A stretch of DNA of 63,051 nt, filler included, from 7 parts of 7 records of this genome joined end to end with filler, not necessarily neighbours in it; one strand, 5' to 3'; positions 11,040-55,126 are shown, numbered from the whole stretch's first letter. Notes: generated from the letters alone by a model not told the origin. Translations and numbers: made by a program.

Positions 11040-11139
11040 NNNNNNNNNNNNNNNNNNNNNNNNNNNNNNNNNNNNNNNNNNNNTTAATTAATTAANNNNN
11101 NNNNNNNNNNNNNNNNNNNNNNNNNNNNNNNNNNNNNNN
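11040..11139. other. Artificial contig spacer
   Basis: N run with central TTAATTAATTAA (stops in all six frames). Confidence 0.99.
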
Positions 11140-29242: not shown

Positions 29243-29342
29243 NNNNNNNNNNNNNNNNNNNNNNNNNNNNNNNNNNNNNNNNNNNNTTAATTAATTAANN
29301 NNNNNNNNNNNNNNNNNNNNNNNNNNNNNNNNNNNNNNNNNN
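29243..29342. other. Artificial contig spacer
   Basis: N run with TTAATTAATTAA. Confidence 0.99.
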
Positions 29343-37257: not shown

Positions 37258-37357
37258 NNNNNNNNNNNNNNNNNNNNNNNNNNNNNNNNNNNNNNNNNNN
37301 NTTAATTAATTAANNNNNNNNNNNNNNNNNNNNNNNNNNNNNNNNNNNNNNNNNNNN
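37258..37357. other. Artificial contig spacer
   Basis: N run with TTAATTAATTAA. Confidence 0.99.
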
Positions 37358-42565: not shown

Positions 42566-42665
42566 NNNNNNNNNNNNNNNNNNNNNNNNNNNNNNNNNNN
42601 NNNNNNNNNTTAATTAATTAANNNNNNNNNNNNNNNNNNNNNNNNNNNNNNNNNNNNNNNNNNNN
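42566..42665. other. Artificial contig spacer
   Basis: N run with TTAATTAATTAA. Confidence 0.99.
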
Positions 42666-49407: not shown

Positions 49408-49507
49408 NNNNNNNNNNNNNNNNNNNNNNNNNNNNNNNNNNNNNNNNNNNNTTAATTAATTAANNNNNNNNNNNNNNNNNNNNNNNNNNNNNNNNNNNNN
49501 NNNNNNN
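49408..49507. other. Artificial contig spacer
   Basis: N run with TTAATTAATTAA. Confidence 0.99.
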
Positions 49508-49556
49508 ATGGAAAAAGCAGCTTAGGAAAAGTGTCCATTTTTACTTGACCACATCA
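49508..49556 (+). mobile_element. Right end of an IS3-family element
   Basis: ...MEKAA* transposase-like tail then GTGTCCATTTTTACTTGACCACATCA; reverse complement TGATGTGGTCAAGTAAAAATGGACAC resembles IS911-type terminal IRs; at contig break. Confidence 0.72.
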
Positions 49557-49778
49557 ATGTAATGTTTCCGCTTTTTTTATTATATATTGAGACATTAATG
49601 CTTGAACTTTATCTTCATTTAATCGTAATTCAAATTCATATTCTGGATCCATCATGAACACCCCTGGGTGCTCTTCGGGATCTGGCTTAAAAGGCTCGAC
49701 ATCTTTGAAATTTTTATGAATTTGCTCTTTCTCTTTATGAAGCGTTCTTAGCTCTATCCAATATGTAATGATATTCAT
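49554..49778 (-). pseudogene. Array ORF interrupted by the IS3-like end
   Basis: MNIITYW...KKAETLH*; its TGA is the first three bases of the IS terminal repeat. Confidence 0.6.
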
Positions 49779-49807
49779 CCCCGGCGAATCCCCTATTTTG
49801 GTGCACA

Positions 49808-50167
49808 TTAATCAAATTCAATTGAATCCCATGGATATCCAAAAACAGCTAATACAGATCCTCTCCAAAGAACTTCTTCATCACGGCCAAAAGCTACGCC
49901 ATCTGGGAGAAAGCTATCTCCAGGAATCCAATCATCTTTATTTACAGCTAAAACATTCAACCATGGTAATCCATGTTTTCGGCAGATACTATCCCGGATG
50001 AAGCCTAAAGGGTAATTCAAGCTAACTGGGGCAATCTCTCTGTTCTCTGCCTGTCCGATTGCAGCTGCGATTTCACCGTATGTTTCAACCCTCATTTTTT
50101 TTGCCAAGACCTTTAAATGTTCAAAGACCGCTTGACTGTTCTTAGGTGCGTTGTCCCATATTGACAT
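49808..50167 (-). CDS. Hypothetical protein, wHTH-like
   Basis: RBS AGGAGG; TYGEIA...LGFI..C...GLPWL.VLAVNK...PG..F pattern. Confidence 0.7.
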   Translation of the reverse strand: MSIWDNAPKNSQAVFEHLKVLAKKMRVETYGEIAAAIGQAENREIAPVSLNYPLGFIRDSICRKHGLPWLNVLAVNKDDWIPGDSFLPDGVAFGRDEEVLWRGSVLAVFGYPWDSIEFD

Positions 50168-50217
50168 TGCCTGAAATCCTCCTATAGATCTGGCCGGATC
50201 TGCCGGGCCGGTGTCCC

Positions 50218-50601
50218 TTATTTTGGTGCATTTTTTTTAAACTGTTTCCAGCTTTCTTTTAGTAAAATATCCCATACCTCTTCTGGGTGGATTCCGCTAA
50301 ACCATTCTCTTCGGTATGAATAATCTTTTTCATATTGGTAATCACTCATTAAACCCAAACCCATATCTCTTAGCCGTTCATGTACTTTCGACTCAACTAA
50401 TTTTGCATCATCTTCACTTTTCAACTTAAATCCAAAAGGACCAGTTGGGTATCTTGGGTAGTCAGGGGTCCTGAGTGCTCTCGGATTTCCAGCCTGTAAT
50501 TCTTTTAGACGCCTTAGAGGATTTCTTGAATAACCTACTTTACAAAAGTAAGGTTCTTCTGCTGGAGACTCATAAATTACATAGACATAGCATGATGGCA
50601 T
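50218..50601 (-). CDS. GIY-YIG-like (T5orf172/MUG113) protein
   Basis: YVYVI...KVGYSRNP.RRLKELQAGNP...ESKVH..L...REWF. Confidence 0.78.
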   Translation of the reverse strand: MPSCYVYVIYESPAEEPYFCKVGYSRNPLRRLKELQAGNPRALRTPDYPRYPTGPFGFKLKSEDDAKLVESKVHERLRDMGLGLMSDYQYEKDYSYRREWFSGIHPEEVWDILLKESWKQFKKNAPK

Positions 50602-50617
50602 TTAATTGTGCAGTCCC

Positions 50618-50899
50618 CTATTCTGCTTCAATAATTTTCAGATTTTGAAGGGTTTGAAAAATATTGATTTCAAGCAAGAATGTTAAAATCTCGCTATCGT
50701 TATCTTTAGTTCTGGGAATAGAAAAATAACTATCAGATGTTGCTATTTCTACCGTTTTATAAGTTCCGCCAGATGGCTGTGATATATCACCGGTCGTTCC
50801 AATATTTAGATGTTCACGTGACCCTATTTTTTTTATCTCTGAGTAAAGAATTTTTTGTTCATCGTCATTATCATCCGTTACAGTCAAAACTCCATCCAT
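50618..50899 (-). CDS. Hypothetical protein
   Basis: 93 aa; RBS AAGGA from upstream repeat; ends in repeat. Confidence 0.62.
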   Translation of the reverse strand: MDGVLTVTDDNDDEQKILYSEIKKIGSREHLNIGTTGDISQPSGGTYKTVEIATSDSYFSIPRTKDNDSEILTFLLEINIFQTLQNLKIIEAE

Positions 50900-50910
50900 A
50901 TTGCTTTCCT

Positions 50911-51165
50911 TTATTTTGTTTCAAGGTCATCAACCATTTGTTGGCCCTTCTCAGATATTTTAATCTGGTCATACTCTGGAACAGAATAGGTCCTTGATTG
51001 GGGATGTGGCTTTTTAATCATGCTTAATGCAAACAATTCTTCTACAAATAAATCCAATTTTTTATTAGATAGTTCGATATTCATTTCACTTATAATATCC
51101 AAAGGATTCATGGCCACGTTTTTTGCCAATATTTGCATAAATTGCTTTATCTGCGCTTCTGTCAT
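50911..51165 (-). CDS. Hypothetical protein (possible wHTH)
   Basis: 84 aa; RBS AAGGAG; ISEKG..M C-terminal pattern; ends in repeat. Confidence 0.65.
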   Translation of the reverse strand: MTEAQIKQFMQILAKNVAMNPLDIISEMNIELSNKKLDLFVEELFALSMIKKPHPQSRTYSVPEYDQIKISEKGQQMVDDLETK

Positions 51166-51365
51166 TTCCTAGCTCCTTTATTCTATTTTATGGTGTTTCA
51201 GATTGTTCGATTCTCTTTAGTCTTTATTTTTGTATAAGAAAAACTTTGATTTGATGGCTTATAAATCTAAATACTTCAAGCAGATTTCCACCAAATATAG
51301 TTTTAATTGTATCTTTTCCCATGCTGTGTCTTGGGGCCACCGGGATCACCGGATAGGCCAATCCT

Positions 51366-51641
51366 TTAATCAGTTTCTGTTTCAAGTTGTTTTTCTATCG
51401 CGTCTAAATCCAGATCCAATATTGTTGAGTTTTTTTTCTTCTCAAGGCTTAACTTGTTAAAGGGAATTCCATACTTTGGAGATTTAACCGAACCCGTCTG
51501 AGTATCAATTATAAGTCTATGATCTACTGGAGAAAACTGATATCTACCATTTGTAGGTAAACACCAGTCGCGAAAAATAAAAAAGAAACATATCGAAATC
51601 AATATTCCTATTATTACGGATTTTATGTCTATTGTGCCCAT
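51366..51641 (-). CDS. Small membrane-anchored hypothetical protein
   Basis: IDIKSVIIGILI TM then NGRYQ...IIDTQTG. Confidence 0.68.
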   Translation of the reverse strand: MGTIDIKSVIIGILISICFFFIFRDWCLPTNGRYQFSPVDHRLIIDTQTGSVKSPKYGIPFNKLSLEKKKNSTILDLDLDAIEKQLETETD

Positions 51642-51653
51642 AAATATATTCCT

Positions 51654-52148
51654 TTATTTTGGTGCGGTTTTTTCGTCTTGTGGGTTTTCTAATGAGGGTA
51701 GCCTCTCATACATTGCATCCCTAACTTCTTCTGCCAACTGCTCTGCTTCTGCTTCCCATGGTTGATGTTCAGAAGAAAAATAATTGGGATCTTCGGCCTT
51801 AAGATTGGTGAACTTTTCCCCTTTCCAAATAGAGTACCCCATACAAGGTTCCCAATCACCTTTACAAATCTGTGCGAGATGTATTGCTTCATGGGGAATT
51901 CCCCATGCAAGAGCATTTGTATCGTACTTGGGATTAAAGACCATTACTGCTCTGCCAGCATTGTCAATTGATGCGGCAAGAAAAAATTGTAGAGATTCCA
52001 ATCTGTCACTCATGTCATGCCGAACATTAATTTGTCCACTTTCTAATTCATTTTTGTTCACGAAACCTTTTTCGATGAGAAACAGCAAGCATTCGTTTAG
52101 CACTAATTCAACGGACTTTTTTTTATATTCAACTGGTGTGAGTTCCAT
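51654..52148 (-). CDS. Putative HExxH metallopeptidase
   Basis: RBS AGGAGG; PHEAIHLAQ...Y...PWEAEA. Confidence 0.72.
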   Translation of the reverse strand: MELTPVEYKKKSVELVLNECLLFLIEKGFVNKNELESGQINVRHDMSDRLESLQFFLAASIDNAGRAVMVFNPKYDTNALAWGIPHEAIHLAQICKGDWEPCMGYSIWKGEKFTNLKAEDPNYFSSEHQPWEAEAEQLAEEVRDAMYERLPSLENPQDEKTAPK

Positions 52149-52189
52149 GTTCCTCCTGAGGCCATCCGGATCTGCCGGGGTCACATCCC

Positions 52190-52447
52190 CTATTCTGGTT
52201 CAGTTTGAAATCGAATTGGTGGGCTGTTTTTTGCTCCCTTGAGTGCTTGTTCTGGCACCTTACTTACGGTAAGATTGTTATCTTTTGCCCATCTCAAAAA
52301 CAACTCCTCATCGATACACTTATATTCGAATGAATCTGGGTGTGGTTCTGAAGATGGAAATAATAAGGCAATTTGTCTATATGGAATAACAATATCATCT
52401 CCACCATGTTCTTCAATCGCTTTTAAAAGCCTCTCTTCATTATTCAT
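52190..52447 (-). CDS. Hypothetical protein
   Basis: 85 aa; flanked by repeats on both sides. Confidence 0.65.
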   Translation of the reverse strand: MNNEERLLKAIEEHGGDDIVIPYRQIALLFPSSEPHPDSFEYKCIDEELFLRWAKDNNLTVSKVPEQALKGAKNSPPIRFQTEPE

Positions 52448-52460
52448 CTATCCGACTCCT

Positions 52461-52819
52461 CTATTTTGGTTCAATTTTTTGGGGTTTAAGAACAACTTTT
52501 ATCCCGGCTCCCGCCTGGAATGACACAATTAAAGCCCCTGACTCCCTTCCCCTGTAACCCATACCTCCACCTGAGAGACATCATAACCTTTAAAGTACTT
52601 TACTATCTCGTCTAATGTTTTCTTTTTCAGAGTTTTAATTGTCGGAACTAGCTCAGAAGAAAATCCAGATGCTGGTTGTGGGTCTAAAAAATCTCTTGCC
52701 ACATATTCTATTTGAGGTATCAACAAGACAGTGGAACTATCTTTTTTTTCTTCGGCGGAGGCAACTGCAGAAAGACTAAAGAAAAAAAGAACGGCAATTA
52801 TCATTGTTTTTTTATTCAT
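52461..52819 (-). pseudogene. Secreted protein with a one-base frameshift near 52535
   Basis: Signal peptide MNKKTMIIAV...ASA; adding one G to the GGGG run continues GALIVSFQAGAGIKVVLKPQKIEPK* ending in the repeat. Confidence 0.65.
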
Positions 52820-53211
52820 TGATCCTCTCCCTTCTTTTGATATATTTTCCAATTTACCTATCGAATGCCCTTGAAAATGTGGCTTTATTAGTTTTCACGG
52901 AATCCGCTTATCAACCACTTAACAATAAATAACAGGCCGTGAAGCAAGGCGTCAAATCTTCTTCCAGTAGTCCACTTACTGAAGAAGAAAAGGAAATTCC
53001 TTCGAATGTCTTATTTATTTTCAAGGCTGTACCATAATACTCTTCAAGCTTGCCTTGATCCCAATGAAAACGAGCAAAAACCTCTTCTACTTCGGGTTTA
53101 AATTTGTGGTTTGTAAACTAAACACCAGCAATACACCCAAAGATTGACGTTAAAATGGCAACGATTGTAAAAACACGATTCAACCCCTTTTTATAAAACC
53201 ACTCCAGCTAT

Positions 53212-53628
53212 CTATTTTGGTTTACTGCTTAATATATCAACCACAACTTCCTTGGTTTCATCGTATTTAATAACTTTTAACGTTATTAAATAGTTTTTAT
53301 CCTCAGACTTAAACGTTATGGGTAAATCATTCTCTAAAAATAGATATTTTTCTCCATCGACCTTTATTTGAGCATTCCCACCTTGCCCTGGGACATCTAT
53401 TATGTAGGCGAGAAGTGTATTATCTTGCGCTTTAATACTTGGGTTTGTTTTTTCAGAAAAGACTAAATCAGACTCTACAACTGAAAATGTGACTGGTGGA
53501 ATTATGCTTTCTTTCATAGTGACCGGTTTGCTGAAAGCATTTACAATTACACCAGCAATAACGGCTCCAGCAATCGCTGCACCCCATTTAAAAAAAGGTT
53601 TTGAAAATACATTGGAATTCATGTTCAT
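53212..53628 (-). CDS. Membrane-anchored hypothetical protein
   Basis: RBS AAGGAG; N-terminal TM; ends SKPK* in repeat. Confidence 0.7.
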   Translation of the reverse strand: MNMNSNVFSKPFFKWGAAIAGAVIAGVIVNAFSKPVTMKESIIPPVTFSVVESDLVFSEKTNPSIKAQDNTLLAYIIDVPGQGGNAQIKVDGEKYLFLENDLPITFKSEDKNYLITLKVIKYDETKEVVVDILSSKPK

Positions 53629-53703
53629 AGGATCTCCTTTCAGCCCGTTTAAAGGAGTTATTAGACCGGGCTTTGATTTATATTCATTTAAGAAAGAGTC
53701 TTA

Positions 53704-53967
53704 CTAATTCCAGGCATTTAAAACAAGCTGTCTTTTTTCCGGTCCAAGCACCTGTAAGTAAACCTCAGTGGTTTTAGTGTCTGCATGGCCAAGCAGATCA
53801 CGGACAAGCGTTATTGGTGCGTTACCCTGAAGCATTGCGATTGCAAAGGCATGTCTTAAACCTTTGCAGGTAGCTTGAGGACCAGATATCCCGGCGGCAG
53901 CCATGACATTTTTCACTGTTCGCCAGGTCGTTGACCTGCTGTAAGTCCAAAATGGTTTTTTCTCCAT
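53704..53967 (-). pseudogene. Tyrosine recombinase C-terminal remnant
   Basis: KGLRHAFA, LLGHAD, TTEVY; N-terminal half absent (in-frame stops just upstream). Confidence 0.82.
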
Positions 53968-54028
53968 TTTTTCAACATATTGTTGCAGTTTTTTTTATTA
54001 CCCAGCATTATTATCCAGGGGAGCGCGG

Positions 54029-54811: not shown

Positions 54812-55026
54812 CTACAGAAACCTCCTATCAAATAAAAGCGTATTTCCAGGACTTTTTACGTTGTCTATTTAGTTGAATCTTCCAGTAACAATTTTATGAT
54901 GAAAATTGCAACAATCAATTTAATGCCCTGATAAATTTCCTTTTCAGAATTACGAAGATAAAAAAACCGCATTTCGGTTTTTCATGGAGCCAATAGAGGC
55001 AGGTCAATACGCAAATCCTATAGTTT

Positions 55027-55126
55027 NNNNNNNNNNNNNNNNNNNNNNNNNNNNNNNNNNNNNNNNNNNNTTAATTAATTAANNNNNNNNNNNNNNNNNN
55101 NNNNNNNNNNNNNNNNNNNNNNNNNN
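55027..55126. other. Artificial contig spacer
   Basis: N run with TTAATTAATTAA. Confidence 0.99.

Follow-up and report, generated by a model that had tools for sequence, protein, structure and literature searches.

Repeat-Bounded Short Genes beside a Small Tyrosine Recombinase Gene and the GC-Rich Hairpin at Some of Their Junctions

In a stretch of DNA of 63,051 nucleotides (the window), one contig (49508-55026, 5.5 kb, GC content 0.378) carries on its minus strand a 260-amino-acid (aa) open reading frame (ORF), then the C-terminal half of a tyrosine recombinase gene, then about 11 short ORFs. A short repeat stands at the junctions between these ORFs, and some copies are followed by a GC-rich hairpin. 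A preliminary description of the locus proposed that the full site may be the repeat plus the hairpin, acting as a single-stranded substrate for a tyrosine recombinase or an HUH enzyme, or as an RNA processing signal. Is the hairpin part of a recombination site and, if not, what moves these genes? The explanation we favor, with a probability of about 0.55 on sequence comparison, is that the genes form a cassette array on which a small tyrosine recombinase acts at one-armed, double-stranded sites, the hairpin being an optional passenger leader. Probably, the recombination site does not include the hairpin.

The Junction Repeat and the Small Tyrosine Recombinase

Ten junctions in the contig bear the 17-nt repeat TGMAHCARAAT-ARRGGA, an 11-bp arm followed by a purine spacer. 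In array order on the minus strand, they lie at 53208..53224 (repeat 1, spacer divergent), 52457..52473 (repeat 2), 52186..52202 (repeat 3), 51650..51666 (repeat 4), 51362..51378 and 51174..51190 (repeats 5 and 6, both with a degenerate arm), 50907..50923 (repeat 7), 50614..50630 (repeat 8), 50214..50230 (repeat 9), and 49789..49805 (repeat 10). Among 66 hand-listed junctions, column information falls to background beyond repeat position 17-19, and no conserved right arm was found. In two of the three frames, the repeat closes the upstream gene with a stop codon, and it supplies a ribosome-binding site (RBS) to the next one. Just over half of the 96 repeats scored (50/96) end an ORF of at least 45 codons in the TAR frame, with TAA or TAG at positions 11-13, giving protein tails such as ETE, ESK, ETK, and EPK; the initial TGA stops an ORF in 8 and no ORF is stopped by 38. 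Repeat 3 contains the stop of an 85-aa ORF and repeat 4 that of a 164-aa ORF. The C-terminus of the 164-aa protein exceeds that of 13 of 16 aligned homologues (16 of 33 matches were aligned) by 9-11 residues, and the extra residues run into the repeat.

The recombinase gene of the window is a C-terminal remnant (53704..53994, minus strand; PF00589), 94% identical to residues 117-205 of P0001, a protein of 207 aa; residues 1-116 are missing. An arm-like, near-palindromic word that the repeat matrix does not score lies at 53970-53990, where the gene breaks off; recombination at a secondary site may have truncated it. Members of the P0001 family match PF00589 and pass no NCBIfam cut-off, the matches to the FimB/FimE NCBIfam models being weak; on TIGR02249 (integron integrase) P0001 scores 65.9 bits versus a cut-off of 265. 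R52, K154/R157, H180, and Y189, which we take to be the catalytic residues, are conserved in the full-length rows of the family alignment. Matches to Xer profiles begin at profile position 95-120, and a predicted structure (pLDDT 83.6) matches the catalytic part of XerA (TM-score 0.64 of query and 0.48 of target; Foldseek E 1e-7). Simple tyrosine recombinases are described with a core-binding domain (PMC8138268). Because the Xer profile matches start late and the model fits the XerA catalytic part alone, the P0001 family is predicted to consist of the catalytic domain only, without a core-binding domain.

GTDB species representatives hold 413 relatives of P0001, and the best 80 of the 413 loci were examined. 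Upstream of the recombinase gene lie palindromic sites of two 11-bp arms around 5-6 bp: one adjoins the start codon (6-bp centre) and often a second is found 70-90 bp further up (5-bp centre). A full inverted-arm site whose arm is that of the repeat occurs within 220 nt upstream of the gene in 29 of 77 scorable loci. The array repeat corresponds to the left arm of this palindrome plus the purine spacer. The two also agree in their variants: where the upstream arm reads TGAAT (L010, L012, L014, and L249), T occupies position 5 in 20/25 array arms, and where it reads TGAAA (L003, L008, and L030) in 1/10, a comparison of seven loci from related hosts that are not independent. Plasmid or Shewanella copies (L001, NZ_CP011413.1; L018; L022; and L042) have both upstream palindromes complete and no array, a pattern as expected of a plasmid resolvase; for plasmid L001, typing assigns a MOBP relaxase that is a separate protein. 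At the other end of the gene, behind the recombinase stop, Desulfobacteraceae elements share a conserved leader of ~80 nt (L030:714-790, L180, L190, and L251), which occurs in L190 although the gene is absent there; a further copy follows the repeat at L030:1355.

The repeat accompanies this recombinase. With a matrix built from seven window repeats alone, the 39 closest loci gave 18 matches downstream of and co-oriented with the recombinase gene versus 0, 0, and 0 in three control zones; the same four zones of the remaining 41 of the 80 loci gave 0/0/0/1. Of the two enzymes first proposed, a tyrosine recombinase was therefore found with the repeat, and there is no HUH enzyme among the 12 ORFs of the contig, the other loci not having been screened.

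Comparison of 130 repeat-bounded segments revealed homologous units that end at the repeat and stand beside different neighbours. One is present twice in L179 at 98% identity, another is common to L179 and L030 at 97%, and a third is shared by L180 and L190 at 94% over its full 186 nt. A gene pair, presumably VapBC-like from its sequence, recurs as a unit in L182, L192, L195, and L273, and the last cassette of the window recurs in L179. The two L179 copies of the first unit have the same unusual arm at their end and different arms in front; the upstream gene would therefore carry the arm at its 3' end, with the crossover in or next to the spacer.

We propose that the recombinase binds the double-stranded arm, cleaves where arm and spacer meet, and swaps cassettes from one junction to another. 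Since each site has one conserved arm, a single ordered strand exchange or a tolerant second pair is suggested. The likeliest chemistry would be one strand exchange between two arm-bound monomers, the resulting junction being resolved by replication or by a loosely bound second pair. Spacers would drift toward an RBS because the gene that follows requires it. As its recombinase gene is without the N-terminal half, the window array is probably inactive in cis ("frozen") unless a recombinase copy acts in trans.

The junctions could instead be nested attR-like right ends of a small integrative element, with each repeat being the arm of the element fused to the target at which it inserted and the hairpin being a scar of a preferred GC-rich target or of post-recombinase DNA. 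In keeping with this, all sequence to the right of the spacer is variable, DNA behind one L030 repeat is homologous to the DNA behind the recombinase stop (P<0.002), the post-recombinase leader recurs in L180, L190, and L251, and several loci retain solely the inner arm of their upstream site. However, a target scar predicts arm-less chromosomal copies, of which none was found in 150 genomes, and the post-recombinase leader only weakly resembles the hairpin family (best P 0.012-0.034). It also leaves unexplained why the upstream gene takes the arm along, as in the two L179 copies, which end in one and the same arm variant. We regard this reading as improbable.

The GC-Rich Hairpin Leader

The exact 14-mer CCCGGCAGATCCGG, with a CCGG-N5-CCGG core, occurs on the minus strand at 50194..50207 (copy W1) and 52166..52179 (copy W2), each time 6 nt behind a repeat, as first described. 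An AGGAGG is present after both copies, 10 and 8 nt later and not directly behind them. The whole leader W1, behind repeat 9, runs from the repeat spacer to the second RBS (50178..50213; AGGAGG at 50183-50178), and the whole leader W2, behind repeat 3 (52152..52185), ends in AGGAGG, 3 nt before the ATG at 52148. The variant hairpin reported at 51335-51359 is there as well, inside leader W3 (51328..51361, minus strand), which follows repeat 5 and precedes merely a 32-codon ORF; so is the 8-mer CGCCGGGG at 49779..49786 on the same strand, a possible leader remnant. In our reading, the leader is an optional segment of 25-45 nt on the right side of some junctions, with its own RBS at the 3' end.

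The hairpin is tied to the repeat. CCCGGCAGATCCGG is the sole repeated 14-mer of the contig (chance expectation of a second copy 3.6e-6), with no further copy within 2 mismatches in 63 kb; both 14-mers and the variant begin 2-6 nt behind a junction repeat; and of the 27 CCGG-N3..7-CCGG words in the window, all 3 in the contig stand directly behind a repeat. Over the arrays, hairpin words are enriched behind repeats (7/21 words in 3.4% of bases), the word patterns having been chosen after viewing the data. Leader relatives occupy the same position in two Desulfobacteraceae genomes, one in L183 and two close ones in L249 (L249a and L249b). Together with W1, W2, and W3, they form a connected homology group of the shape GCCCYGG..GATC.CCGG.GGCCCCAGGAG, with link P values from <0.002 to 0.02. 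The W3 variant is related to the W2 copy (P 0.012-0.022) and to the two L249 copies (P<=0.002), and its relation to the W1 copy is not detectable (P 0.15-0.32); these P values come from 105 pairs and are uncorrected.

That the 14-mer is a repetitive extragenic palindromic (REP) element of the host, or a chance GC-rich word such as a CCGG/GATC-rich coding remnant, unrelated to the repeat, is largely refuted and very improbable. Desulfobacteraceae genomes do contain many one-mismatch matches (16 and 13 vs. 2 and 0 for controls), the differences between W1/W2 and L183 fall at would-be third codon positions, and of two matches to an order-level pattern search of 401 genomes one is the L183 copy and the other a chance match inside a gene. 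Against these stands the fixed offset behind the repeat. Nor is the word dispersed: the leader tail pattern gave 1 match in 5 genomes, in an array, and in 150 genomes the leader profile recovered as strong matches its own training copies only, three of them, beside 16 weak arm-less matches. The profile is insensitive, since it missed its own training copy W1. Furthermore, the hairpin has neither the CGTC/GTAG tag nor the 8-9-bp stem described in PMC3733652. Reading the hairpin as a coding remnant gave no common peptide across six copies. A more speculative idea, taken from back-translation, is that the hairpin might represent the DNA underlying the extended C-terminus of the protein P0002.

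The preliminary description has the window copies folding as CCGG stems; good folding was not confirmed. Four window junctions, as DNA or RNA, gave z-scores of -0.6 to +1.5 versus dinucleotide shuffles, and the window leaders alone +0.6, +1.0, and -1.1; as RNA, the copy at 52166 favours an alternative pairing of the spacer GGGG with CCCC. Among 12 leaders folded, W1, W2, L183, and L024 did no better than shuffles. RNAalifold found no consensus structure for 11 copies and a 4-bp stem of -1.5 kcal/mol for six. The covariation score (6 sequences, 4 pairs, in an alignment that shifts W3 and L249b) was at shuffle level, being reached in 195/500 shuffles; its power is low, as few sequences were compared and CCGG can pair with itself. 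The leader has no match in Rfam.

These results bear on the proposal that arm, spacer, and hairpin together form the site as folded single-stranded DNA, hairpin-less junctions being decayed and inactive. Several observations agree with it: the leader always begins within about 10 nt of the arm, the loop varies (4-7 nt) while stem letters are constant, the spacer pairs with the leader 3' end in several copies, GC-rich leaders stand at 5/11 L249 junctions, and a looser form of the leader stands alone between two arms, without an ORF, in four genomes (L178, L179, L239, and L249). The 37-nt hairpin-only unit of L239 matches the last part of an L178 segment at 89% identity. However, hairpin words follow just 7/62 Desulfobacteraceae-type repeats (window included) and 0/25 gammaproteobacterial ones (difference not significant, p 0.19), so that 80/87 repeats are without one, and the units demonstrably moved have none. 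An L180 cassette with a plain 9-nt leader shares 79% identity with the one that follows the hairpin in L183. Conservation stops at repeat position 17-19, as seen above, and neither covariation, in the small set tested, nor a consensus fold was found. The arm itself is unpaired, and the recombinase family's own sites are symmetric double-stranded palindromes; because the arm is outside the stem, folding makes no attC-like site. The folded site thus appears unlikely, and with it the idea of repeat plus hairpin as the full site.

A cassette array with double-stranded, one-armed sites accommodates these junctions if the leader travels with the junction even when ORF-less and decays freely, being dispensable for cassette movement. 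Loss of the leader by slippage, leaving a plain junction, is possible because two similar purine words flank it, which would allow the erosion envisaged for older units; leaders may equally have been gained at plain junctions. Arms before hairpins are no better kept than other arms (p 0.46) and hairpins show no order along arrays, at odds with that part of the claim. The C-terminus of the 164-aa ORF (51654-51690) reads PQDEKTAPK. Since PQDE, AQDE, or SQDE also terminates ORFs of L178, L179, and L249 that extend across a hairpin-plus-arm unit, this stretch may be one more eroded leader. More tentatively, and less likely than our preferred reading, a minimal, catalytic-domain-only recombinase would perform single-gene capture at one-armed 17-bp stop/RBS sites, distinct from integrons. 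The site would then trim, terminate, and translate each gene inserted, and the hairpin leader would mark an unfilled or ancestral junction for first joining.

Any function of the leader would be exerted at the mRNA level. A selected RNA signal might hide the repeat RBS and offer a second one, protect or mark a processed 5' end, or end antisense transcription with the T-run of the arm on the other strand. A second RBS could uncouple translation from the upstream gene, and in the folds predicted for L249a, L249b, and W3 the second RBS is unpaired while the spacer is bound to the 3' C-run of the leader; a terminator-like match also overlaps W1 on the plus strand at 50201-50213. Such matches are, however, at chance level (window, 2 vs. 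4.2; L249, 6 vs. 5.0), W1, W2, and L183 give the shuffle-like folds reported above, Rfam is silent, and a second RBS is useless to ORF-less units. We therefore hold an RNA signal to be doubtful.

Several points weigh against our cassette array with a passenger hairpin. The model leaves unexplained how a new gene first acquires its 3' arm, and the spacer of the upstream site (often ACCCC) is unlike the array spacer (ARRGG) in direct orientation. Two or more repeats occur in 5-6/39 close recombinase loci; because most loci are without an array, most family members may be plain plasmid resolvases. The recombinase is found in 6/161 Desulfobacteraceae genomes, broken in three of them, and five array-bearing genomes gave no close recombinase. 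No joints were seen among the contigs of one sequencing run, contigs dropping rare forms. Finally, the enrichment of hairpin words behind repeats persists without the window (4/18, P 0.003), and 8/12 leaders fold better than shuffles (z -1.1 to -3.6), both hinting at selection on the stem.

Array Contents and Distribution of Related Loci

The window is made of seven contigs of differing GC content (0.37-0.6) joined by linkers of N with TTAATTAATTAA (11040-11139, 29243-29342, 37258-37357, 42566-42665, 49408-49507, and 55027-55126), and the contigs need not come from a single organism. The whole array (49508..53703, minus strand) comprises about 11 short co-oriented ORFs with a GC content of 0.36-0.39 and runs to the contig end. 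A Pfam domain was found in 1/11 cassette ORFs, and a PADLOC scan of the window ORFs gave no match. The 164-aa ORF (51654..52148) has an HExxH motif, the 127-aa ORF (50218..50601) a T5orf172/MUG113 domain, and the 119-aa ORF behind leader W1 (49808..50167) no family match. The last cassette ORF (49554..49778) has a DNA homologue, 71% identical over 136 nt, in the last cassette of array L179, where the leader is AT-rich. Further ORFs lie at 53212-53628, 52529-52852, 52190-52447, 51366-51641, 50911-51165, and 50618-50899, all on the minus strand.

Other parts of the contig have features of their own. The unit at 52860-53200, behind repeat 1, is without an intact long ORF and shows a short hydrophobic start and stops; it is probably a decayed cassette. 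A GC-rich stem-loop at 52485-52520, presumably like a REP remnant, sits between two cassettes and not behind any repeat. A stretch of ~50 nt (54901-54950) is matched at 85-95% by many contigs of one sequencing run, with a summed depth of 459 versus 33, and is a candidate multi-copy element end or promoter.

In related loci, the first unit behind the recombinase or near the array head is often a toxin-antitoxin-like pair (L008, L010, L027, L030, L041, L178, L180, L182, and L184), a label taken from translated sequence and not from a profile scan. A phage-type integrase and an smpB-like gene border the end of the array L014:13236-16206, which is probably inside an island integrated at tmRNA. A long hairpin behind a cassette gene in L012 (16070-16150) is one that we would liken to an integron attC, which suggests that integron cassettes can enter arrays like this one. 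In two Thiodiazotropha arrays (L027:1499-1545 and L012:16145-16195), repeats are adjoined by hairpins of another family, which start with GGGGTTACAGATCC.

Arrays were located in Desulfobacteraceae and Gammaproteobacteria. The repeat has 41 exact matches in 25/161 Desulfobacteraceae genomes versus 3 for a reversed control, and the arrays of this family hold 2-10 repeats. The L249 locus, on a 5.1-Mb contig, has nine or more repeats together with an intact recombinase and the two upstream sites. At the order level, the repeat matched in 79/401 genomes; 40 of these matches were inspected and gave a recombinase piece in L273 only and no convincing array. In the phylum sample, the recombinase was present in 1/401 genomes, the centre genome itself. 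A Sedimenticolaceae-level search (4/131 genomes) added little, and 20 further stretches contained no array. A conserved CCAGG-plus-arm word in many Desulfobacteraceae genomes proved to be hflX coding sequence.

Outside these genomes, a metagenome scan with P0001 yielded 32 loci, none of them close with an array, and a plasmid search with the junction and the array returned nothing meaningful. The viral scan gave 0 matches for repeat plus 14-mer, distant ones only for the recombinase, and 3 single ones for the repeat. Its 7 matches for repeat plus CCGG stem, without arrays or recombinase, were taken as chance.

Comparison with Known Systems

We found no account of this array element in the open-access literature, searched as text. 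If our reading is true, a second system for shuffling cassettes exists in sulfate reducers and marine Gammaproteobacteria, one that searches based on attC would overlook. Its enzyme would be among the smallest tyrosine recombinases, with sites of one conserved arm. It would bear on recombination with a poor partner site and on the birth of promoterless single-gene cassettes. The intact copy of L249 makes the system directly testable. The hairpin alone is a minor feature, and the interest lies in the surrounding array.

The pdif sites of Acinetobacter plasmids are 28-bp, two-armed sites in alternating layout, used by the host XerC/XerD. Their modules are similar to the arrays in that small genes and toxin-antitoxin pairs are shuffled at short tyrosine-recombinase sites (PMC6449649, PMC13141974). 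The array sites, in contrast, have one arm and a single orientation, and this arm is the one found in the sites upstream of the dedicated recombinase gene itself. FimB and FimE are proteins of ~200 aa without a fused core-binding domain. P0001 is comparable with these invertases and with the relaxases MpsA/TcpM, which are also tyrosine recombinases without that domain; no inverted cassettes were seen in the arrays. The case of MpsA indicates that such stripped tyrosine recombinases can act as relaxases (PMC6414798), a type of enzyme required at an oriT for conjugative transfer.

The CGTC/GTAG REP palindromes (PMC3733652) are like the leader hairpins in being short GC-rich intergenic stem-loops with 4-5-nt loops. 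The leader hairpins differ in having no terminal tag, a 4-bp core stem, 1-3 copies per genome, and a position always behind an arm.

The arrays share their layout with the rAID-1 elements (10.1101/471110), which have a 5' tyrosine recombinase followed by at least two co-directional genes, a GC content of at most 41%, and a repeated intergenic motif. The rAID-1 recombinases are XerD-like, >44% identical to the Bacteroides fragilis prototype, and reported as restricted to Bacteroidales, and the cargo consists of orphan immunity genes. The present arrays are probably set apart by a catalytic-domain-only enzyme without the N-terminal ~100 XerD profile positions, by their Desulfobacteraceae and Gammaproteobacteria hosts, and by a cargo that looks to be toxin-antitoxin pairs and genes of no known family.

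The arrays are also similar to integrons and to clusters of attC sites lacking integron-integrases (CALINs) (PMC8618304). In both, short co-oriented genes, mostly of no known function or encoding toxin-antitoxin systems, stand in tandem, each bounded by a site; the same cassette is found in different arrays, and some arrays have lost the recombinase. Unlike integrons, the present arrays have a 207-aa recombinase far below the IntI cut-off, co-oriented with and upstream of the array, and their site is a 17-nt non-palindromic arm plus spacer instead of a folded attC, with a hairpin that accompanies 7/87 repeats and excludes the arm.

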